Shown here: positions 5,534 to 56,925 of the stretch, piece by piece
How positions within the stretch are numbered: the stretch's first letter is position 1
Layout: the number at the start of each line of letters is the position of its first letter
Source of the DNA: Escherichia coli
GTDB lineage: Bacteria; Pseudomonadota; Gammaproteobacteria; Enterobacterales; Enterobacteriaceae
DNA length: 64,000 nucleotides
Direction: 5' to 3' (one strand)
Assembly: GCF_045037415.1 (NCBI RefSeq)
Contig: NZ_CP173438.1
Translations under genes and position numbers: made by a program
The notes under the pieces: model-generated
Told to the model about the DNA's origin: nothing
The model's database searches: none
Seen by the model: only the letters and a program-made list of their open reading frames with translations

Positions 5534-8500
5534 TTACACCTCCACGCGGCCCAGCAGATAATGATGATGCTGGTGGACATGGCTAATGATGCGGCACATA
5601 TCGTTCAGCTCCGGTGGTACGTTGTTGAACTGACCTTCGCTGTCGATGTTTAACACCCAGCTTTGGTTATTCAGACGTACGCGTACCCGGCAATCTTCCA
5701 CAAGGAAGCCTGGGTTACTGCTGTTATCAAAGTCTTGCGACAGGCTGAAGACGGTGATTTTGTCTTTGTACGGTTTACCGTTCCACGGGCAGAATTGGGC
5801 GCAGTTGCCGCATTCGTTGCAGTAGGCATCGAGATGCAGCGTCTGGAAACGGTTCTGGAAGCCAGGAACCGCAATGGATACGTTGGCGCGGTTCGGGCAG
5901 ACATCCACACACTTGCTGCAAACGTAGTTACATTCAAGGCAGCGTGCGGCTTCCTGTGCGACAAACGCGTCACGATCGTCACTGTTCACCAGAGTGACAG
6001 AGATATCGCCTTTACGTTGATAGATTTCCGCCGGATTTACGTTGTTCCAGTATTTATCGTTCTGGTGGGAACGGATATTTTCCCGACTAAGGATGGTATC
6101 GGTCGCCCGACGCGCGGTTCCGACAGCAGCGACAATGGAGGATGGTCCGCGCTGTACGTCGCCGATCATAAAGACGTCAGTCAGACGCGTTTCGCCATTA
6201 TGGTCGACGTCTGGCCAGCCGTTTTTGTCCAGCGGCACGCCCATCGCATTCAGGGCTTCAGTATCCTGCTGTTCACCAATGGCGGTGATCAGACTGTCCA
6301 CATGCAGTGTTACTGTTTCGTTGGTTTCAACCGGACGGCGACGACCTTTCTCATCAGGTTCGCCAAGCGACATAACGCGCAAGGTTAAGGTGCCATCAGC
6401 ATCGAAACGTTCCGGATTATTCAGAAAACGGAACTCCACGCCGTCGTGCAACGCTTCTTCATACTCTTCGCGCCATGCGGGCATTTCTTGCAGTGAACGA
6501 CGGTAAACGACCGTTGCTTTTTCTACGCCTGGAACGCGTAACGCCGCACGAGCGCAGTCCATTGCGGTGTTACCCGCCCCGACAACGACCACATGTTTGC
6601 CCAGCTTGAGCGCGGTGCCCTTGTTGTATTCACGCAGGAAAGGGAGTGATTTCCAGACATTTTGGTTGTCGCCCGCCAGTTTCACACCGCTATTTTTATC
6701 AGTGCCGGTGGCAATCAGAACATAGTGGAAGCCCTGATTTTTTAACTGTTCAACGGTCAAATCGGGTGAGCAACCGTACTCAAATTTCACGCCGTGAGCG
6801 GCAACAAAATCGATATCGTGCTGAATTAACTCTGCAGGAATACGGAACTGAGGAATGATATTTTTCACCACGCCGCCCGCATTGGCTTCGCGTTCAAACA
6901 GCGTGACCGGATGGCCCGCTCTGGCAAGGAAGTAACCTGCGGCCAGACCCGCCGGACCTGCACCAATCACGGCTACCGGATGGCGTGAACCGGAACCGGC
7001 TGGTTTGTGCCAGCGTTGCTTATATTCATCCCAACCTTTTTCCAGGGCGACTTTTTTCAGTTCGCGGATATTCAGCGCACTGTCGTAATCCAGGCGGGTA
7101 CAGTTGTATTGGCACTGGTGATCGCAAATATGACCGGTAATGGCGGGCAGGGCGTTGCGTTGATAGATGAGTTCCAGCGCGTCGGCATAGCGGTGTTCGC
7201 CAAGCAGACGGATGTATTCCGGAATATCTTGCTTGATAGCGCAGGCAGTAACACAGGGGGCAACGTAGCAATCGGTCAGCGGCAGGTCTTCAGCCACTTC
7301 AATACGCTCTTCTGGCTTCCAGTGTTTCTGGGTGTATTCCATGGTTAACGCGTCTGCTGCCAGTCTGTTCAGTCGTTCGACGTCAACGTGGTTAAGCTCC
7401 CAGGCGTCGGAGCCTTCCAGCTCGCGCATGCAGGCACTTAAGCGCAGATAGCCGCCAGGTTTCAGCAGGTCGGTTGCCATAGTAATAGGGCGAATACCAG
7501 TATCAAAAATATCGCGGATAGTCAGCTGACTGGCACCACCGGAATAAGAAATGGGCAGTTTGCCGTCAAAGGCGCGAGAGAGAACTGCTGCAACGTTGAT
7601 GGAGAGCGGGAACAGCGCACGGCCTGACATATACATCTCTTCACCGGGCAGTGCGCCTTTATTGTTGATGGTGCCGAGAGTGTTAGTCAGTTTTACGCCA
7701 AAGCCGAGTGATTTTTCTTTTGCCAGTGCCATCAGGCGTTCCAGCATTTCCAGTGCTTGCGTCAGCTTGAGGTCGTGATCAAATGACTCTTCTTTTAAGC
7801 CGATGTAACCGAAACCGCAGACATCGAGGATCTCACGAACACGCGCGTACCCCAGTAAGGTCGGGTTGAGTTTCACAAAGGTGTTGAGTCCTTTTTCTTC
7901 CAGCATGTAGCGGCAAATGGCTTCGATTTCATGCGGAGGACAGCCGTGCATGGTGGAGAGGGTAACACCTTGTACCATGCTGGTGGGGATGCGAGCGGGT
8001 AAGGCTTGCAAGCTTTCGCGTTTTTCCTGCAATCCGTGGCGGGCTAAAAATGCCTCATCCTGGAGTAGCTTATTAAGTGCATCGCGGTATTGAGCGAATT
8101 TCGGATGGTCAGATGCGTCCATCATATTGTCGATGAACTGCTGCATCGGCGGTTGCTTAATACCTTCGAGGTTGTAACCGACGCTCATATTAAAGATGAA
8201 CGATTTACCGGAATCAGAAGGCTGGAACATCGCTTCGAGAAGGTGCAGGGCAAACCAGGCTTTGAGGTATTCATCCCAGGCTTTAAGCAGGGTAAATTCG
8301 GTAGACCATTCGGTGTTAAAGCACTCGTCTTCGGCATCGATACAGGGCTTTTCCAGCTCCAGACGGTCAAGAATTTGGACGGTTTTTAGTTCGATGAAGC
8401 GTCCGCCAGTCAGCCAGGAAGTGACAATATTTTGCGCGAGTTGCGTGTGCGGGCCAGCGGCAGGGCCGACGGGAGTGGCACAGGTTTCACCGAAGACGCT

Positions 8501-8632
8501 AACAGTTTTACTTTTTACGGGTGAGTAAAACTGTTGCTCGGGAATACCAAAGATTGAGCGTTGTTGTTGGTATTCATCAAATATGCGCGTCAAAAGTTCC
8601 TCAAACGGAATGGGACGCATAATATCCCCCAT
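5534..8632 (-). CDS. ygfK: Large Fe-S flavoprotein oxidoreductase (GltD-like NAD(P)/FAD domain plus ferredoxin-type 4Fe-4S motifs)
   Basis: 1032 aa; VAVIGAGPAGLAAGYFLARAG dinucleotide fold; CLECNYVCSKCVDVCP cluster motif near C-terminus. Confidence 0.92.
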   Translation of the reverse strand: MGDIMRPIPFEELLTRIFDEYQQQRSIFGIPEQQFYSPVKSKTVSVFGETCATPVGPAAGPHTQLAQNIVTSWLTGGRFIELKTVQILDRLELEKPCIDAEDECFNTEWSTEFTLLKAWDEYLKAWFALHLLEAMFQPSDSGKSFIFNMSVGYNLEGIKQPPMQQFIDNMMDASDHPKFAQYRDALNKLLQDEAFLARHGLQEKRESLQALPARIPTSMVQGVTLSTMHGCPPHEIEAICRYMLEEKGLNTFVKLNPTLLGYARVREILDVCGFGYIGLKEESFDHDLKLTQALEMLERLMALAKEKSLGFGVKLTNTLGTINNKGALPGEEMYMSGRALFPLSINVAAVLSRAFDGKLPISYSGGASQLTIRDIFDTGIRPITMATDLLKPGGYLRLSACMRELEGSDAWELNHVDVERLNRLAADALTMEYTQKHWKPEERIEVAEDLPLTDCYVAPCVTACAIKQDIPEYIRLLGEHRYADALELIYQRNALPAITGHICDHQCQYNCTRLDYDSALNIRELKKVALEKGWDEYKQRWHKPAGSGSRHPVAVIGAGPAGLAAGYFLARAGHPVTLFEREANAGGVVKNIIPQFRIPAELIQHDIDFVAAHGVKFEYGCSPDLTVEQLKNQGFHYVLIATGTDKNSGVKLAGDNQNVWKSLPFLREYNKGTALKLGKHVVVVGAGNTAMDCARAALRVPGVEKATVVYRRSLQEMPAWREEYEEALHDGVEFRFLNNPERFDADGTLTLRVMSLGEPDEKGRRRPVETNETVTLHVDSLITAIGEQQDTEALNAMGVPLDKNGWPDVDHNGETRLTDVFMIGDVQRGPSSIVAAVGTARRATDTILSRENIRSHQNDKYWNNVNPAEIYQRKGDISVTLVNSDDRDAFVAQEAARCLECNYVCSKCVDVCPNRANVSIAVPGFQNRFQTLHLDAYCNECGNCAQFCPWNGKPYKDKITVFSLSQDFDNSSNPGFLVEDCRVRVRLNNQSWVLNIDSEGQFNNVPPELNDMCRIISHVHQHHHYLLGRVEV

Positions 8633-8704
8633 AACCCTCTCCTTAGCTTATACAGATATCATTGAGTGACCGGTGTTGAGAAATCCGGTGGTTTAGGGGG
8701 ATAG

Positions 8705-8720
8705 AGCAACAATCGCACCA
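8705..8720 (-). promoter_or_regulatory. Candidate sigma-54 (-24/-12) promoter upstream of ygfK
   Basis: Minus strand reads TGGTGCGATTGTTGCT; GG and GC dinucleotides 10 bp apart, matches TGGCAC-N5-TTGCW at 14 of 16 positions; about 70 nt upstream of ygfK start. Confidence 0.4.
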
Positions 8721-8783
8721 CTCTTGCCAGGTTTGACGGGAAATATAAAAAAATGTGAGGCGGCTCGAAACTTAATGGCTTTT

Positions 8784-8799
8784 TGTGAATGAACTCACA
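8784..8799. promoter_or_regulatory. CRP-like palindrome TGTGA-N6-TCACA (CRP site or enhancer-binding-protein UAS)
   Basis: Sequence TGTGAATGAACTCACA, perfect inverted half-sites, about 70 bp upstream of the candidate -24 element. Confidence 0.4.
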
Positions 8800-8953
8800 G
8801 GTGCCAAATGAGAATTAAAATCACTCCTGAAAATTATTATTGCCAGCCCATTTATCACTTTTTCTCTTTTCTCAAAATCAGTGATTCCTTATCATTATGA
8901 TAAAGAGTGCTGGAGGGATTAAATATTTGAACGCAATCGTTTAACTACGTTTT

Positions 8954-9532
8954 CTAAATTTCAGTATACCTTTTCTTCGCTGTAATAAAGTCGTCCGGAG
9001 TATCAATATCTAAAATTATTTCTGCATTTTCTATTTCGACGGAATAATGTTCTCCCATAAGGAGTGCCTGACGCATATTGGTGACATTGGGGCGCTGGAT
9101 TGCCTGCATCAGGCATGGTTTTGACACTAAAATCGGATGGCCGGGGATGCCATTATGGAGTGGCAGTATTGCGCCATCATTTCGTAACGACCAGATTTTT
9201 CTAAAAATATCGATGGTGAGGGTTGGCATATCTCCGTGGGTGAGAAAACAATGTTCTGTTTGCACCGCGGGTACTGCGGCCTTTACTGATGTCAGTAAAC
9301 CCTGCGCATAATCTGGGTTGTGGATAATAGTGATATTGCTCTGGTTCGCATAACGTTCGTGCAGTTCATTACCACGATAGCCGGTGACTAAAATAATTCG
9401 GCTACAAAACTGCAACGCATTTTTGATACTTGTATCAAGAATTGTTCCCTGTTGCCAGGGTAACATCATTTTCCATTGCCCCATTCTTGATGATAATCCT
9501 GCGGCGGTAATTATACAGTCGATGGCTGACAT
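8954..9532 (-). CDS. mocA: Molybdenum cofactor cytidylyltransferase (MobA-like nucleotidyltransferase)
   Basis: 192 aa; N-terminal AIDCIITAAGLSSRMG nucleotidyltransferase motif. Confidence 0.88.
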   Translation of the reverse strand: MSAIDCIITAAGLSSRMGQWKMMLPWQQGTILDTSIKNALQFCSRIILVTGYRGNELHERYANQSNITIIHNPDYAQGLLTSVKAAVPAVQTEHCFLTHGDMPTLTIDIFRKIWSLRNDGAILPLHNGIPGHPILVSKPCLMQAIQRPNVTNMRQALLMGEHYSVEIENAEIILDIDTPDDFITAKKRYTEI

Positions 9533-9635: not shown

Positions 9636-10406
9636 GTGAAAAGTATAATTGACCCATCGGCATTATTCATTGATTTAGGCGCGCAGAAACGTCCCACTGT
9701 GATTTCTATTGTTGGTGCTGGGGGGAAAACCAGCTTGCTTTTTTGGCTGGCAGAACTGTTCCAGGCGAGTGGCAGGCGTGTATTAATCACTACGACGACA
9801 CATATGTTTATGCCAACATCTCACTGGCCCGTGGTTTTCTGTCGTGATCCCGCCATGCTTCCTCATGCGTCTTTTATATCCCCCATTTCATTTTGTTTTC
9901 ACTGCTGGAAAGCGAACCAGGGAAAAGTGCAGGGATTTACGCCAGAAGCGATTGATGCACTGGTACAACGACCAGAGTGTGACGTAATTCTCATTGAGGC
10001 AGATGGCTCGCGTGGAATGCCGTTAAAAGCGCCTGATGAGCACGAACCTTGCATACCTAAAAGCAGTTGCTGCGTGATTGCTGTGATGGGAGGACATATT
10101 TTGGGTGCGAAAGTGAGCACAGAAAATGTCCATCGCTGGTCGCAGTTTGCTGATATTACTGGGTTAACACCTGATGCACCCTTGCAACTGAGCGATCTCG
10201 TTGCGCTGGTTCGCCACCCTCAGGGCGCGTTTAAAAACGTACCGCAAGGTTGTCGGCGAGTCTGGTTCATTAACCGTTTTTCTCAATGTGAGAATGCGAT
10301 TGCGCAAAGCGAGCTCCTTCAACCGCTGCAACAACACAACGTAGAGGCAATCTGGCTGGGCGATATACAAGAACATCCTGCAATCGCGCGCAGATTTGTG
10401 AATTAG
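9636..10406 (+). CDS. yqeC: P-loop accessory protein of selenium-dependent molybdenum hydroxylase systems
   Basis: 256 aa, GTG start; Walker A IVGAGGKTS. Confidence 0.85.
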   Translation: MKSIIDPSALFIDLGAQKRPTVISIVGAGGKTSLLFWLAELFQASGRRVLITTTTHMFMPTSHWPVVFCRDPAMLPHASFISPISFCFHCWKANQGKVQGFTPEAIDALVQRPECDVILIEADGSRGMPLKAPDEHEPCIPKSSCCVIAVMGGHILGAKVSTENVHRWSQFADITGLTPDAPLQLSDLVALVRHPQGAFKNVPQGCRRVWFINRFSQCENAIAQSELLQPLQQHNVEAIWLGDIQEHPAIARRFVN

Positions 10407-18400: not shown

Positions 18401-18416
18401 TGTGGGGTTGATCACA
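18401..18416. promoter_or_regulatory. CRP-like palindrome in ygeW-ygeV divergent region
   Basis: TGTGGGGTTGATCACA (TGTGg-N6-TCACA). Confidence 0.3.
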
Positions 18417-24260: not shown

Positions 24261-24276
24261 GGCAAGAATTACGCCA
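24261..24276 (-). promoter_or_regulatory. Weak candidate sigma-54 promoter upstream of xdhA
   Basis: Minus strand TGGCGTAATTCTTGCC; GG-N10-GC spacing preserved. Confidence 0.2.
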
Positions 24277-24618
24277 GAAACGACTATATGCGTGAGGGGA
24301 GGAAGGAAGTGTGATGACGTTAAAAAAACACAGATATGATACGAAACAGGACTCTGAATAGGGACAGTGATACGTATCAATATGAGTGGCGATAAAATCA
24401 ATGTGATAAATTAGGATTATTACGCATCAAGGTGGGAAATAGGGTAAAAGTCAGGAAATTCGATACCACTACAGCAAATATTTTGCTGATGATACTTCCC
24501 TTTGCCAAATGAAATTAACCTCTTTCTCTATTACATCGTTTTTCCAGAAGCAAGAGATTGGGTATCAAGAGGCTGGCTGCTATGATATGGCGTCTTGTTT
24601 TTTAAGCGAGGAAAGATT

Positions 24619-34019: not shown

Positions 34020-35282
34020 ATGCCACATTCACTGTTCAGCACTGATACCGATCTCACCGCCGAAAATCTGCTGCGTTTGCCCGCAGAATTTGGCTGCCCG
34101 GTGTGGGTCTACGATGCGCAAATTATTCGTCGGCAGATTGCGGCGCTGAAACAGTTTGATGTGGTGCGCTTTGCACAGAAAGCCTGTTCCAATATTCATA
34201 TTTTGCGCTTAATGCGTGAGCAGGGCGTAAAAGTGGATTCCGTCTCGTTAGGTGAAATAGAGCGTGCACTGGCGGCGGGTTACAATCCGCAAACGCACCC
34301 TGATGATATTGTTTTTACGGCAGATGTTATCGATCAGGCGACGCTTGAACGCGTCAGTGAATTGCAAATTCCGGTGAATGCGGGTTCTGTTGATATGCTC
34401 GACCAACTGGGGCAGGTTTCGCCAGGGCATCGGGTATGGCTGCGTGTTAATCCGGGGTTTGGTCACGGGCATAGCCAAAAAACCAATACCGGTGGCGAAA
34501 ACAGCAAGCACGGTATCTGGTACACCGATCTGCCCGCCGCACTGGACGTGATACAACGTCATCATCTACAGCTGGTCGGCATTCACATGCACATTGGTTC
34601 TGGCGTCGATTATGCCCATCTGGAACAGGTATGTGGTGCTATGGTGCGTCAAGTCCTCGAATTCGGTCAGGATTTACAGGCTATTTCTGCGGGCGGTGGG
34701 CTTTCTATTCCTTATCAACAGGGTGAAGAGGCGGTTGATACCGAACATTATTATGGTCTGTGGAATGCCGCGCGTGAGCAAATCGCCCGCCATTTGGGCC
34801 ATCCTGTGAAACTGGAAATTGAACCGGGTCGCTTTCTGGTAGCGCAGGCTGGCGTATTAATTACTCAAGTGCGGAGCGTCAAACAAATGGGTAGCCGCCA
34901 CTTTGTTCTGGTTGATGCCGGGTTCAACGATCTGATGCGCCCGGCAATGTACGGTAGTTACCACCATATCAGTGCCCTGGCAGCTGATGGTCGTTCTCTG
35001 GAACACGCGCCAACGGTGGAAACCGTCGTCGCCGGGCCGTTATGTGAATCGGGCGATGTCTTTACCCAGCAGGAAGGGGGAAATGTCGAAACCCGCGCCT
35101 TGCCGGAAGTGAAGGCGGGTGATTATCTGGTACTGCATGATACAGGGGCATATGGCGCGTCAATGTCATCCAACTACAACAGCCGTCCGCTGTTACCAGA
35201 AGTTCTGTTTGATAATGGTCAGGCGCGGTTGATTCGCCGTCGCCAGACCATTGAAGAATTACTGGCGCTGGAATTGCTTTAA
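34020..35282 (+). CDS. lysA: Diaminopimelate decarboxylase
   Basis: 420 aa; PLP fold-III decarboxylase; N-terminus MPHSLFSTDTDLTAENLLRLPAEFG. Confidence 0.95.
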   Translation: MPHSLFSTDTDLTAENLLRLPAEFGCPVWVYDAQIIRRQIAALKQFDVVRFAQKACSNIHILRLMREQGVKVDSVSLGEIERALAAGYNPQTHPDDIVFTADVIDQATLERVSELQIPVNAGSVDMLDQLGQVSPGHRVWLRVNPGFGHGHSQKTNTGGENSKHGIWYTDLPAALDVIQRHHLQLVGIHMHIGSGVDYAHLEQVCGAMVRQVLEFGQDLQAISAGGGLSIPYQQGEEAVDTEHYYGLWNAAREQIARHLGHPVKLEIEPGRFLVAQAGVLITQVRSVKQMGSRHFVLVDAGFNDLMRPAMYGSYHHISALAADGRSLEHAPTVETVVAGPLCESGDVFTQQEGGNVETRALPEVKAGDYLVLHDTGAYGASMSSNYNSRPLLPEVLFDNGQARLIRRRQTIEELLALELL

Positions 35283-50492: not shown

Positions 50493-53400
50493 ATGTTAAG
50501 GGTCTACCATTCCAATCGTCTGGACGTGCTGGAAGCGTTGATGGAGTTTATTGTCGAACGCGAACGGCTGGACGATCCTTTCGAACCAGAGATGATTCTG
50601 GTGCAAAGTACCGGTATGGCACAGTGGCTGCAAATGACCCTGTCGCAAAAGTTTGGTATTGCGGCAAACATTGATTTTCCGCTGCCAGCGAGCTTTATCT
50701 GGGATATGTTCGTCCGGGTGTTACCGGAGATCCCCAAAGAGAGCGCCTTTAACAAACAGAGCATGAGCTGGAAACTGATGACACTGCTGCCGCAACTGTT
50801 GGAGCGCGAAGACTTTACCCTGTTGCGGCATTATCTGACTGACGATAGTGACAAGCGAAAACTGTTCCAGCTTTCTTCAAAAGCGGCGGACCTGTTTGAC
50901 CAGTATCTGGTCTATCGTCCGGACTGGCTGGCACAGTGGGAAACAGGACATCTGGTAGAAGGGTTGGGAGAAGCACAGGCCTGGCAAGCGCCGTTGTGGA
51001 AGGCGTTGGTGGAATATACCGACGAACTTGGGCAACCGCGCTGGCACCGCGCCAATCTCTATCAGCGCTTTATCGAAACGCTGGAGTCCGCGACGACCTG
51101 CCCGCCGGGGTTACCTTCGCGCGTCTTTATATGCGGTATTTCCGCGTTACCGCCTGTTTATCTCCAGGCGCTACAGGCGCTGGGTAAACATATTGAAATC
51201 CATCTCCTGTTTACCAACCCCTGCCGTTATTACTGGGGCGACATTAAAGATCCCGCTTATCTGGCGAAACTACTGACTCGCCAGCGCCGACACAGTTTTG
51301 AAGATCGCGAATTACCGCTATTTCGCGACAGCGAAAATGCCGGGCAGCTCTTTAACAGCGATGGTGAACAGGATGTCGGCAACCCGCTGCTGGCTTCATG
51401 GGGCAAGCTTGGGCGCGACTACATTTATCTCCTTTCTGACCTGGAGAGCAGCCAGGAGCTGGACGCTTTTGTCGATGTGACGCCAGATAACCTGCTGCAT
51501 AATATTCAGTCTGACATTCTGGAACTGGAAAACCGCGCCGTTGCTGGTGTGAACATCGAAGAGTTTTCCCGTAGCGATAACAAACGCCCGCTTGATCCAC
51601 TGGATAGCAGTATCACCTTCCACGTTTGCCATAGCCCGCAGCGTGAAGTTGAAGTTTTACACGATCGCCTGCTGGCGATGCTGGAGGAAGACCCGACACT
51701 TACTCCGCGCGACATCATCGTGATGGTGGCTGATATCGACAGCTACAGTCCGTTTATTCAGGCTGTGTTTGGTAGCGCACCTGCGGATCGTTACCTGCCT
51801 TACGCCATTTCCGACCGTCGGGCGCGGCAGTCGCATCCTGTACTTGAAGCGTTTATCAGCCTGTTATCGTTGCCAGACAGCCGCTTTGTGTCGGAAGACG
51901 TGCTGGCATTACTGGATGTGCCGGTGCTGGCGGCGCGGTTTGACATCACCGAAGAAGGGCTGCGTTATTTACGCCAGTGGGTCAACGAGTCCGGCATTCG
52001 TTGGGGGATAGATGACGACAACGTTCGCGAGCTGGAACTTCCCGCTACCGGTCAACACACCTGGCGGTTTGGCCTGACGCGCATGTTGCTGGGCTACGCG
52101 ATGGAGAGCGCGCAGGGCGAGTGGCAATCGGTTCTACCTTATGATGAATCGAGCGGCTTAATTGCAGAACTGGTGGGGCATCTGGCTTCACTGCTAATGC
52201 AGCTAAATATCTGGCGTCGCGGGCTGGCGCAGGAGCGTCCGCTGGAAGAGTGGTTGCCGGTTTGTCGCGATATGCTCAACGCCTTCTTCCTGCCGGATGC
52301 GGAAACCGAAGCGGCGATGACGCTGATCGAACAACAATGGCAGGCGATTATCGCCGAAGGTTTAGGTGCGCAGTATGGCGACGCGGTGCCGCTGTCACTA
52401 TTGCGTGATGAACTGGCACAGCGCCTGGATCAAGAACGTATCAGCCAGCGTTTTCTCGCCGGACCGGTTAACATTTGTACTCTGATGCCAATGCGTTCAA
52501 TTCCGTTCAAAGTGGTTTGCCTGCTGGGAATGAACGACGGCGTTTATCCACGTCAGCTTGCGCCATTGGGCTTTGATCTGATGAGCCAGAAACCGAAGCG
52601 TGGCGACCGTAGCCGTCGCGATGACGACCGCTATCTGTTCCTGGAAGCGTTAATTTCCGCGCAGCAAAAACTCTATATCAGCTATATCGGGCGTTCCATT
52701 CAGGATAACAGTGAACGTTTCCCGTCGGTACTGGTGCAGGAACTGATCGACTACATCGGGCAAAGCCATTATCTACCGGGCGATGAAGCGCTCAACTGTG
52801 ATGAAAGCGAGGCAAGGGTAAAAGCGCATCTTACTTGCCTCCATACCCGAATGCCGTTTGATCCACAAAACTACCAGCCAGGCGAACGACAAAGTTATGC
52901 TCGTGAATGGCTACCTGCGGCCAGCCAGGCTGGTAAAGCACATTCTGAATTTGTTCAGCCGCTGCCATTTACCTTACCGGAAACCGTGCCGCTGGAAACG
53001 CTACAACGATTCTGGGCACATCCGGTGCGGGCATTTTTCCAGATGCGTTTGCAGGTGAACTTCCGTACCGAAGACAGCGAAATCCCCGACACCGAGCCAT
53101 TTATTCTGGAAGGACTTAGCCGTTATCAAATCAATCAGCAGTTATTGAATGCACTGGTTGAGCAGGATGATGCCGAACGCTTGTTCCGTCGCTTCCGGGC
53201 GGCAGGGGATTTACCGTATGGCGCTTTTGGTGAAATTTTCTGGGAAACGCAGTGTCAGGAGATGCAGCAGCTTGCCGACAGAGTCATTGCCTGTCGCCAG
53301 CCGGGGCAGAGTATGGAGATTGATCTCGCCTGCAACGGTGTGCAAATAACGGGCTGGTTGCCGCAGGTGCAGCCGGATGGCCTGTTGCGCTGGCGTCCCT

Positions 53401-54036: not shown

Positions 54037-56925
54037 ATGCCCCGCAGCATCTGGTTCAAAGCATTATTGTTGTTTGTTGCCCTCTGGGCACCCTTAAGTC
54101 AGGCAGAAACGGGATGGCAGCCGATTCAGGAAACCATCCGTAAAAGTGATAAAGATAACCGCCAGTATCAGGCTATACGTCTGGATAACGGTATGGTGGT
54201 CTTACTGGTTTCTGATCCGCAGGCAGTTAAATCGCTCTCGGCGCTGGTGGTGCCCGTTGGGTCGCTGGAAGATCCTGAGGCGTACCAGGGGCTGGCACAT
54301 TACCTTGAACATATGAGTCTGATGGGGTCGAAAAAGTATCCGCAGGCTGACAGTCTGGCCGAATATCTCAAAATGCACGGCGGCAGTCACAATGCCAGCA
54401 CGGCACCGTATCGCACGGCTTTCTATCTGGAAGTTGAGAACGATGCCTTACCCGGTGCGGTAGACCGCCTGGCCGATGCTATTGCAGAACCCTTGCTCGA
54501 CAAGAAATACGCCGAACGTGAGCGTAATGCAGTGAATGCCGAATTAACCATGGCGCGTACGCGTGACGGGATGCGCATGGCACAGGTCAGCGCAGAAACC
54601 ATTAACCCGGCACACCCCGGTTCAAAGTTTTCTGGTGGTAACCTCGAAACTTTAAGCGACAAACCAGGTAATCCGGTACAGCAGGCGCTGAAAGATTTCC
54701 ACGAGAAGTACTATTCCGCCAATCTGATGAAGGCGGTTATTTACAGCAATAAACCGTTGCCGGAGTTGGCGAAAATGGCGGCGGACACCTTTGGTCGCGT
54801 GCCGAACAAAGAGAGCAAAAAACCGGAAATCACCGTGCCGGTAGTCACCGACGCGCAAAAGGGCATTATCATTCATTACGTCCCGGCGCTGCCGCGTAAA
54901 GTTCTGCGCGTTGAGTTTCGCATCGATAACAATTCAGCGAAGTTCCGTAGTAAAACGGATGAATTGATTACCTATCTGATTGGTAATCGCAGCCCTGGTA
55001 CACTTTCTGACTGGCTGCAAAAGCAGGGATTAGTTGAGGGCATTAGCGCCAATTCCGATCCTATCGTCAACGGCAACAGCGGCGTATTAGCGATCTCTGC
55101 GTCTTTAACCGATAAAGGTCTGGCGAATCGCGATCAGGTTGTGGCGGCCATTTTTAGCTACCTCAATCTGTTACGTGAAAAAGGGATCGATAAACAATAC
55201 TTCGATGAACTGGCGAATGTGCTGGATATCGACTTCCGTTATCCGTCAATCACCCGTGATATGGATTACGTCGAATGGCTGGCAGATACCATGATTCGCG
55301 TTCCTGTTGAGCATACACTGGATGCAGTCAATATTGCCGATCGGTACGACGCTAAAGCGGTAAAAGAACGTCTGGCGATGATGACGCCACAGAATGCGCG
55401 TATCTGGTATATCAGCCCGAAAGAGCCGCACAACAAAACGGCTTACTTTGTCGATGCGCCGTATCAGGTCGATAAAATTAGCGCACAAACTTTCGCTGAC
55501 TGGCAGAAAAAAGCCGCCAATATTGCGCTCTCCTTACCGGAGCTTAACCCCTATATTCCTGACGATTTCTCGCTGATTAAGTCAGAGAAGAAATACGACC
55601 ATCCAGAGTTGATTGTTGATGAGTCGAATCTGCGCGTGGTGTATGCGCCAAGCCGTTATTTTGCCAGCGAGCCCAAAGCTGATGTCAGCCTGATTTTGCG
55701 TAATCCGAAAGCCATGGACAGCGCCCGCAATCAGGTGATGTTTGCACTCAATGATTATCTCGCAGGGCTGGCGCTTGATCAGTTAAGCAACCAGGCGTCG
55801 GTTGGTGGCATAAGTTTTTCCACCAATGCTAACAACGGCCTTATGGTTAATGCTAATGGTTACACCCAGCGTCTGCCGCAGCTGTTCCAGGCTCTGCTGG
55901 AGGGCTACTTTAGCTATACCGCTACGGAAGATCAGCTTGAGCAGGCGAAGTCCTGGTATAACCAGATGATGGATTCCGCAGAAAAGGGCAAAGCGTTCGA
56001 GCAGGCGATTATGCCCGCGCAGATGCTCTCGCAAGTGCCGTACTTCTCGCGAGATGAACGGCGCAAAATTTTGCCCTCCATTACGTTGAAAGAGGTGCTG
56101 GCCTATCGCGACGCCTTAAAATCAGGGGCTAGACCAGAGTTTATGGTTATCGGCAACATGACTGAAGCCCAGGCAATAACGCTGGCACGCCATGTGCAAA
56201 AACAGTTGGGCGCTGATGGTTCAGAGTGGTGTCGTAACAAAGATGTCGTGGTCGATAAAAAACAATCCGTCATCTTTGAAAAAGCCGGTAACAGCACCGA
56301 CTCCGCACTGGCAGCGGTATTTGTACCGACTGGCTACGATGAATACACCAGCTCAGCGTATAGTTCTCTGTTGGGGCAGATCGTACAGCCGTGGTTCTAC
56401 AATCAGTTGCGTACCGAAGAACAGTTGGGCTATGCCGTGTTTGCGTTTCCAATGAGCGTGGGGCGTCAGTGGGGCATGGGCTTCCTTTTGCAAAGCAATG
56501 ATAAACAGCCTTCATTCTTGTGGGAGCGTTACAAGGCGTTTTTCCCAACCGCAGAGGCAAAATTGCGGGCGATGAAGCCAGAAGAGTTTGCGCAAATCCA
56601 GCAGGCGGTAATTACCCAGATGCTGCAGGCACCGCAAACGCTCGGCGAAGAAGCATCGAAGTTAAGTAAAGATTTCGATCGCGGCAATATGCGCTTCGAT
56701 TCGCGTGATAAAATCGTGGCCCAGATAAAACTGCTGACGCCGCAAAAAATTGCTGATTTCTTCCATCAGGCGGTGGTCGAGCCGCAAGGTATGGCTATTC
56801 TGTCGCAGATTTCCGGCAGCCAGAATGGGAAAGCCGAATATGTGCATCCTGAAGGCTGGAAAGTGTGGGAGAACGTCAGCGCGTTGCAGCAAACAATGCC
56901 CCTGATGAGTGAAAAGAATGAGTGA
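54037..56925 (+). CDS. ptrA: Periplasmic protease III (pitrilysin, M16 family)
   Basis: 962 aa; signal peptide; inverted zinc motif HYLEHM. Confidence 0.97.
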   Translation: MPRSIWFKALLLFVALWAPLSQAETGWQPIQETIRKSDKDNRQYQAIRLDNGMVVLLVSDPQAVKSLSALVVPVGSLEDPEAYQGLAHYLEHMSLMGSKKYPQADSLAEYLKMHGGSHNASTAPYRTAFYLEVENDALPGAVDRLADAIAEPLLDKKYAERERNAVNAELTMARTRDGMRMAQVSAETINPAHPGSKFSGGNLETLSDKPGNPVQQALKDFHEKYYSANLMKAVIYSNKPLPELAKMAADTFGRVPNKESKKPEITVPVVTDAQKGIIIHYVPALPRKVLRVEFRIDNNSAKFRSKTDELITYLIGNRSPGTLSDWLQKQGLVEGISANSDPIVNGNSGVLAISASLTDKGLANRDQVVAAIFSYLNLLREKGIDKQYFDELANVLDIDFRYPSITRDMDYVEWLADTMIRVPVEHTLDAVNIADRYDAKAVKERLAMMTPQNARIWYISPKEPHNKTAYFVDAPYQVDKISAQTFADWQKKAANIALSLPELNPYIPDDFSLIKSEKKYDHPELIVDESNLRVVYAPSRYFASEPKADVSLILRNPKAMDSARNQVMFALNDYLAGLALDQLSNQASVGGISFSTNANNGLMVNANGYTQRLPQLFQALLEGYFSYTATEDQLEQAKSWYNQMMDSAEKGKAFEQAIMPAQMLSQVPYFSRDERRKILPSITLKEVLAYRDALKSGARPEFMVIGNMTEAQAITLARHVQKQLGADGSEWCRNKDVVVDKKQSVIFEKAGNSTDSALAAVFVPTGYDEYTSSAYSSLLGQIVQPWFYNQLRTEEQLGYAVFAFPMSVGRQWGMGFLLQSNDKQPSFLWERYKAFFPTAEAKLRAMKPEEFAQIQQAVITQMLQAPQTLGEEASKLSKDFDRGNMRFDSRDKIVAQIKLLTPQKIADFFHQAVVEPQGMAILSQISGSQNGKAEYVHPEGWKVWENVSALQQTMPLMSEKNE

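Follow-up and report, generated by a model that had tools for sequence, protein, structure and literature searches.

The question raised by this locus is how transcription of ygfK is controlled, and whether the sigma-54 motif and CRP-like palindrome pointed out upstream of the gene by a sequence-only reading belong to one control region. The window analysed is a stretch of 64,000 nucleotides of the Escherichia coli chromosome carrying the xdh/yge/ygf purine and uric acid cluster. Its positions 8500–9100 share 100% identity with several complete E. coli genomes and were found in 5171 of 5426 genomes. In the reductive uric acid pathway, YgfK is the flavin-dependent reductase responsible for dearomatising 2,8-dioxopurine, and glucose represses uric acid degradation in the wild type (PMC12507026). 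The region upstream of ygfK, taken here as the 321 bp between ygfJ and ygfK (8633–8953), is the control region of ygfK-ssnA-ygfM-xdhD, the operon for the reductive part of anaerobic uric acid breakdown. The genes and the core promoter elements are as follows:

8954–9532, minus strand: mocA (ygfJ), as annotated
8721 to 8705, minus strand: sigma-54 -24/-12 element GTGGTGCGATTGTTGCT, a 17-mer with GG at -25/-24 and GC at -13/-12
8694, minus strand: predicted sigma-54 start (+1), 62 nt 5' of the ygfK ATG
8689 to 8669, minus strand: 5'-UTR hairpin ACCGG-N11-CCGGT, +6 to +26 of the predicted ygfK transcript
8644 to 8639, minus strand: ygfK Shine-Dalgarno sequence AAGGAG
5534 to 8632, minus strand: ygfK coding sequence (1032 aa), ATG at 8632, first gene of ygfK-ssnA-ygfM-xdhD

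The -24/-12 element had been noted as TGGTGCGATTGTTGCT (8720 to 8705, minus strand), with GG and GC spaced as in the consensus. This spacing is correct, as are the coordinates and distances given with it, the GC lying 74 nt before the ygfK ATG (8632). The predicted start was obtained using the convention of Bonocora et al. (2015), that is, the motif centre (8713) minus 19, which gives back the published distance of 62. A search for the bare pattern TGG-N9-TGC returned 65 matches in the window against 47.7 expected, and as this is uninformative, a sigma-54 PSSM was built from 130 of the 135 ChIP-seq motifs of Bonocora et al. (2015), with the five sites of the locus itself excluded. Scoring with such a matrix had been proposed as a check on the earlier reading. 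Using this leave-out PSSM, the ygfK site scored 14.2 bits, which places it at the 46th percentile of validated sites and at rank 4 among about 128,000 window positions, with only the xdhA site and two intragenic sites scoring higher. Since Markov-1 random sequences of 64 kb contain 2.2 ± 1.7 PSSM hits that are equally good, the site is not significant window-wide from its letters alone. Its significance comes only from position and orientation, the chance of such a hit occurring in the right orientation within the 321-bp intergenic region being roughly 0.006. A second sigma-54-like motif (CTGGCAAGAGTGGTGCG, 8730 to 8714), which overlaps the first, was rejected, as it scored 8.1 bits (rank 70) and was not conserved in other genera.

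The same 17-mer is on record as site OS31 in Table 1 of Bonocora et al. (2015), with peak centre 3014019, motif GTGGTGCGATTGTTGCT, downstream gene ygfK and distance 62 (PMC4591121). OS31 has a FAT value of 26, the 11th highest among the 135 sigma-54 sites, and carries the status "P" (promoter predicted) in EcoCyc (PMC4591121). The element described here and the OS31/EcoCyc predicted promoter are therefore the same object, being identical in 17-mer, orientation and distance. That article also lists ygfK among five genes of an earlier rpoN microarray that were confirmed by the ChIP-seq data (PMC4591121). Further sigma-54 ChIP-seq sites of the cluster belong to xdhA, ygeW and ygfT, with another lying inside yqeC (for yqeB) (PMC4591121).

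The palindrome TGTGA-N6-TCACA further upstream had been described as CRP-like, and this identification is borne out by a full match to the consensus and by published binding data. Two CRP-type sites were located:

8799 to 8784, no strand assigned: CRP site 1, perfect palindrome TGTGAGTTCATTCACA, 10/10 matches, centre -97.5
8754 to 8769, minus strand: CRP-like site 2 TTCGAGCCGCCTCACA, 8/10 matches, centre -67.5, 30 bp downstream of site 1

Site 1, which lies 78.5 bp upstream of the sigma-54 motif centre, is the sole zero-mismatch TGTGA-N6-TCACA in the 64 kb, with about 0.06 expected per window. In the genomic SELEX with CRP-cAMP of Shimada et al. (2011), the ygfJ>ygfK spacer was represented by nine clones, making it the third most abundant, and the site table gives the boxes TGTGAGTTCATTCACA and TGTGAGGCGGCTCGAA for ygfK-ssnA (PMC3105977 supplement). 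As TGTGAGGCGGCTCGAA is the reverse complement of site 2, these are the same two boxes as those located here, although in that study the region is treated as a generic CRP target and the boxes are not related to the sigma-54 promoter.

To describe the conservation of these elements, a protein-guided scan was carried out which yielded 80 ygfK loci (one genome per species), and 57 orthologous upstream regions were aligned on the predicted start (window 8694). Ungapped column conservation was blurred by a 1-bp indel between genera and explicit distance measurements were used instead. Nearly every gamma- or beta-proteobacterial locus among the 80 (including those of Enterobacterales, Aeromonas, Vibrionaceae, Shewanella, Morganella, Erwinia, Rhodocyclaceae, Comamonadaceae) has a sigma-54 motif of 12–20 bits at a distance of 58–163 bp 5' of the ygfK start, so that the element noted in E. 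coli extends from Escherichia to Vibrio, Shewanella and the beta-proteobacteria. It was absent from the four Spirochaete ygfK loci. A CRP box with at least 9/10 matches lies at -97.5/-98.5 in 27 of the 29 orthologues having one, and a CRP-like box of the form TTMGA-N6-TCACR occurs at -67.5 to -69.5 in 49 of the 57. In 28 of 28 orthologues, sites 1 and 2 are exactly 30 bp apart. The spacer from -59 to -28, on the other hand, shows only 22–47% identity to that of E. coli, and a length that is kept while its sequence is free would be the signature of a stereospecific nucleoprotein complex. Site 1 has been lost in K. oxytoca, Cedecea neteri, Raoultella terrigena, Aeromonas and Erwinia, with site 2 and the sigma-54 element kept. 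Given that the left half of the -67.5 box is always the non-consensus TTMGA and that this box is conserved more widely than site 1, it may bind a protein other than CRP.

As judged from these comparisons, conservation in the orthologues leaves no doubt that both the sigma-54 element and the CRP palindrome are under selection. This bears on whether the sigma-54 match could be a non-productive site and the palindrome a chance occurrence. The majority of the 135 ChIP-seq sites lie within genes and are silent (PMC4591121), and an equally good PSSM hit arises about twice per random 64 kb. However, the ygfK site lies between genes, in the right orientation and at 62 nt from the ATG, and it is conserved across orders together with its upstream elements. 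We regard such an explanation as highly improbable, and conservation has effectively refuted it.

It could also be supposed that CRP serves a separate, tandem sigma-70 promoter in the manner of glnAp1/glnAp2, with no direct relation to sigma-54. The tandem promoters of glnA provide a precedent, and a TATATT hexamer is present at 8747 to 8742. With this sole -10-like hexamer, however, sites 1 and 2 would fall at about -56.5 and -26.5, neither of which is a class I or class II position, and the hexamer is not conserved in other genera; a class I/II CRP-dependent sigma-70 promoter was rejected on these grounds. A consensus scan of the minus strand in 8500–9100 found no sigma-70 promoter, and the CRP site keeps its distance from the sigma-54 element to within ±1 bp, with the sequence in between free to vary. 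A tandem sigma-70 promoter as the reason for the CRP sites is therefore considered rather improbable.

In Buttiauxella and some Serratia (loci L023, L024, L027, L028, L037, L074, and others) mocA is absent and ygfK is directly divergent from yqeC. The enhancer dyad (see below), the CRP boxes and the sigma-54 element are all kept in these loci.

Upstream of the CRP sites, three further elements were recognised:

8806 to 8826, minus strand: AT-rich block GAGTGATTTTAATTCTCATTT, -132 to -112, containing an everted TGATTT-TAA-TTCTCA repeat
8869 to 8883, minus strand: half-dyad CACTGATTTTGAGAA, centre -182, candidate second enhancer site
8889 to 8903, no strand assigned: perfect dyad TTATCATAATGATAA, centre -202, candidate YgeV enhancer (UAS)

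The dyad is of the TTATCA-N3-TGATAA type, 15 bp in length, and is found 5' of each intergenic sigma-54 promoter in the E. coli cluster. TTATCATAATGATAA is one of only two perfect matches to TTMTCA-N3-TGAKAA in the window. When up to one mismatch was allowed over 75.5 kb, six matches were observed against 0.57 expected (two against 0 expected for perfect matches), and four of the six are at ygfK, yqeC, ygeV/ygeW and ygfT/uacT. The dyads at the other promoters are as follows:

ygfT: TTCTCATATTGATAT
ygeW: ATATCAATATGAGAA
xdhA: TTATCACATTGATTT and CACTCATATTGATAC

Among the orthologues, a dyad is present 5' of ygfK in 44 of 46 non-redundant species, with 62 hits in total and none in coding controls of equal length. 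In these 46 species it is most often placed at -201 to -203 and at -181 to -183, a separation of two helical turns. Orthologues have a complete or incomplete dyad at -181/-182, and a weaker partner dyad is often found about 20 bp away. This paired layout looks like what would be expected of tandem sites for an enhancer-binding protein (EBP). The AT-rich block GAGTGATTTTAATTCTCATTT, which reads as an everted version of the enhancer dyad, is among the best-conserved blocks of the region, and TTCTCA occurs at -119 to -122 in 30 of 57 upstream regions, mostly in Enterobacterales. From its sequence and conservation, this block may be a proximal activator site.

YgeV had been put forward as the only sigma-54 activator in the neighbourhood, and it is indeed the sole EBP annotated in the window. 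It possesses PAS, sigma-54 AAA+ and Fis-type HTH (HTH_8) domains and no receiver domain. Its suggested role at ygfK is supported, though by inference: ygfK belongs to the YgeV iModulon, defined by Lamoureux et al. (2023; PMC10602906), the genes of which are xdhABC, ygeWXY, hyuA, ygfK, ssnA, ygfM, xdhD, ygfT and uacT (list in PMC12133099), and the dyad is shared with the cluster's other sigma-54 promoters. The dyad is thus a candidate YgeV operator. A literature search found no definition of a YgeV operator and no ygfK-specific dependence of expression on rpoN, ygeV or crp beyond one microarray cited in PMC4591121.

The activator might instead not be YgeV, with the dyads bound by another regulator (e.g., one that is Fur-like or binds AT-rich DNA) and a different EBP firing the promoter. 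The half-site TGATAA, in our own reading, resembles Fur-box hexamers. The ygeV gene is also located 10 kb from ygfK in the window, and no YgeV orthologue was found within 3 kb of ygfK among the 80 loci, so that the two genes are unlinked in the loci fetched. Set against this, the dyad clusters at the sigma-54 promoters of precisely those genes that make up the YgeV iModulon, the window encodes no other EBP, and work cited in PMC10602906 reports that ygfT expression is lowered in a ygeV mutant. The TGAGAA/TTCTCA variants of the half-site are furthermore unlike Fur. Readings of the AT-rich dyads as Fur or ARG boxes were weighed by eye and rejected, the conserved TGAGAA/TTCTCA being a misfit to Fur. 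We give an activator other than YgeV little chance, and YgeV is retained as the probable one in what follows.

The predicted transcript itself begins with the hairpin listed above. A hairpin starting at +5 to +8 is found in most genera with stems that are unrelated in sequence (GTCGG/CCGAC, GCCGGA/TCCGGC, TGTGG/CCACA, and GGGGCT/AGCCCC), and folding of the leader gave a mean z of -1.0 compared to -0.1 for an upstream control (Wilcoxon p = 6e-4). A TTMTCA half-site is present in the hairpin loop in many Enterobacterales. The leader hairpin is compatible with the predicted start and could have a stabilising effect on the mRNA. A search with Rfam covariance models over 8400–9100 returned no match at E <= 1.

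Taking these elements together, we consider it probable that ygfK is transcribed by sigma-54 under activation by YgeV, with cAMP-CRP as a DNA-bending architectural co-activator. The RNA polymerase-sigma-54 closed complex would form on the -24/-12 element (8721 to 8705) and would start at the predicted position 8694 only after remodelling by an enhancer-binding ATPase, most probably YgeV, situated on the conserved dyads at -202 and -182. Between enhancer and promoter, the strong CRP site (-97.5) and the weaker CRP-like site (-67.5), 30 bp apart, would allow cAMP-CRP to bend the DNA, taking the part played by IHF at classical sigma-54 promoters, and this bend would bring the enhancer-bound YgeV to the closed complex. 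As a consequence of such bending, the operon would fire only if the YgeV signal is present together with cAMP (no glucose). Published experiments have demonstrated occupancy by sigma-54 in vivo and binding by CRP in vitro, and the geometry of all of the elements is conserved and fixed; from these we infer the action of YgeV at the dyads and the positive, architectural role of CRP.

The arrangement resembles that of the IHF-assisted promoters Pu and nifH, in which an enhancer at about -100 to -200 is separated from a -24/-12 core by a protein-induced bend (PMC3900584, PMC2709558). Unlike these, ygfK lacks an IHF consensus and has two phased CRP-type sites in the place of the bending protein. 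No match to the IHF consensus WATCAANNNNTTR with one mismatch or fewer was found in 8633–8953, and with none between enhancer and core, an IHF-dependent sigma-54 promoter was rejected. A second resemblance is to glnAp2, dctA and Pu, studied by the Wang laboratory, where CRP also sits upstream of a sigma-54 core and the phase of the bend decides the access of the activator to the closed complex. In those systems, in contrast to what is proposed for ygfK, CRP inhibits and does so at weak or recruited sites such as -51.5, whereas the ygfK site is a perfect consensus, is conserved, and precedes a gene of a glucose-repressed pathway. A further comparison is with prpBCDE, reported by Lee, Newman and Keasling in 2005 to be a sigma-54 operon with PrpR and IHF that is positively dependent on CRP. 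Like ygfK as proposed here, it is a catabolic sigma-54 operon with catabolite repression through CRP; it differs in using IHF besides CRP.

The main rival to co-activation is that CRP acts as an anti-activator: at high cAMP, bound CRP would keep YgeV away from the closed complex, either through contact with the alpha-CTD of Esigma54 or by bending the DNA the wrong way. The natural cases of CRP at sigma-54 promoters summarised in PMC3900584 and PMC1865078, namely dctA, glnAp2, Pu and nif, are all inhibitory. A bend between enhancer and sigma-54 promoter is known to aid or block activation depending on its helical phase (PMC1865078, PMC3900584), and at glnAp2 CRP represses from -50.5/-51.5, on the Esigma54 face (PMC1865078). 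If 10.5 bp per turn is assumed and the geometry is carried over from glnAp2, the positions -67.5, -77.5 (ygeW) and -97.5/-98.5 are 1.5, 2.5, and 4.4–4.5 turns from -51.5. By this analogy, the CRP sites would be offset by about half a turn from the repressive position and would point to roughly the other side of the helix, which argues against an inhibitory role. The operon is moreover catabolic, the pathway is repressed by glucose and not by its absence, and a perfect-consensus site whose distance is constant in over 25 species looks like a required component. Inhibition by CRP is accordingly judged unlikely, and co-activation through bending remains the preferred reading. The glucose effect on the pathway could, however, stem from the ygeV-ygeW region or from transport and not from ygfK.

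CRP-like boxes were also identified at other sigma-54 promoters of the cluster:

18401–18416: box at ygeW, TGTGATCAACCCCACA, 9/10 matches, centre -77.5
24310–24325: box at xdhA, TTTTAACGTCATCACA, 8/10 matches, centre -67.5
9978–9993: box at yqeB, TGTGACGTAATTCTCA, 9/10 matches, centre -78.5

The box at ygeW is also given for ygeV<>ygeW in the site table of Shimada et al. (2011) as TGTGATCAACCCCACA (PMC3105977 supplement). The three boxes occupy helically similar positions. We put forward, tentatively, that the promoters of the uric acid/purine regulon (ygfK and probably xdhA, ygeW and yqeB) may constitute a natural and conserved class of sigma-54 promoters in which phased CRP dimers replace IHF as the obligatory loop-forming co-activator (ygfK at -97.5/-67.5, ygeW at -77.5) and in which TTATCA-N3-TGATAA is the YgeV operator. 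Were this the case, such promoters would apply an AND logic to cAMP and the YgeV signal, and the sign of the CRP effect would be opposite to that of all characterised CRP/sigma-54 interactions.

Genome-wide experiments had already revealed the ygfK sigma-54 promoter and its CRP sites, and a link of YgeV to ygfK has been proposed from transcriptomics; as these data are contained in Bonocora et al. (2015), Shimada et al. (2011) and Lamoureux et al. (2023), each element of the earlier observation is on record. The conserved geometry and the candidate YgeV operator are new to this analysis. Together they suggest activation of this sigma-54 promoter by CRP, an unusual arrangement that, if true and achieved through bending, would supply an instructive counter-example to the inhibitory cases known so far. 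The anaerobic urate pathway of gut bacteria is being engineered into probiotics to lower urate, with native promoters replaced to escape glucose repression (PMC12507026). For such engineering, it is useful that ygfK has a sigma-54/CRP/enhancer module of its own which is separate from the ygeV-ygeW region that was replaced.

A number of other sigma-54 sites and dyads were observed in the window. The second perfect dyad, TTCTCAATGTGAGAA (10280–10294), is inside yqeC: the yqeC-internal sigma-54 site (10037–10053, plus strand) lies about 220 bp upstream of this dyad, and yqeB starts about 160 bp downstream of it. The yqeC-internal site drives yqeB (Bonocora et al., 2015; PMC4591121), and the position of TTCTCAATGTGAGAA suggests an enhancer that would lie downstream of its promoter. 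The xdhA sigma-54 motif (24261–24277, minus strand) reads CTGGCGTAATTCTTGCC in this genome compared to CTGGCGTAAATCTTGCC in K-12 (Bonocora et al., 2015), a difference of one spacer base. The PSSM also recovered the intragenic sites of Bonocora et al. (2015) in ptrA (56182–56198) and recC (50854–50870). Finally, a site at the 3' end of lysA (CTGGCGCTGGAATTGCT, 35262–35278, plus strand), which is absent from the high-stringency list of Bonocora et al. (2015), scored 14.7 bits, above the ygfK site.
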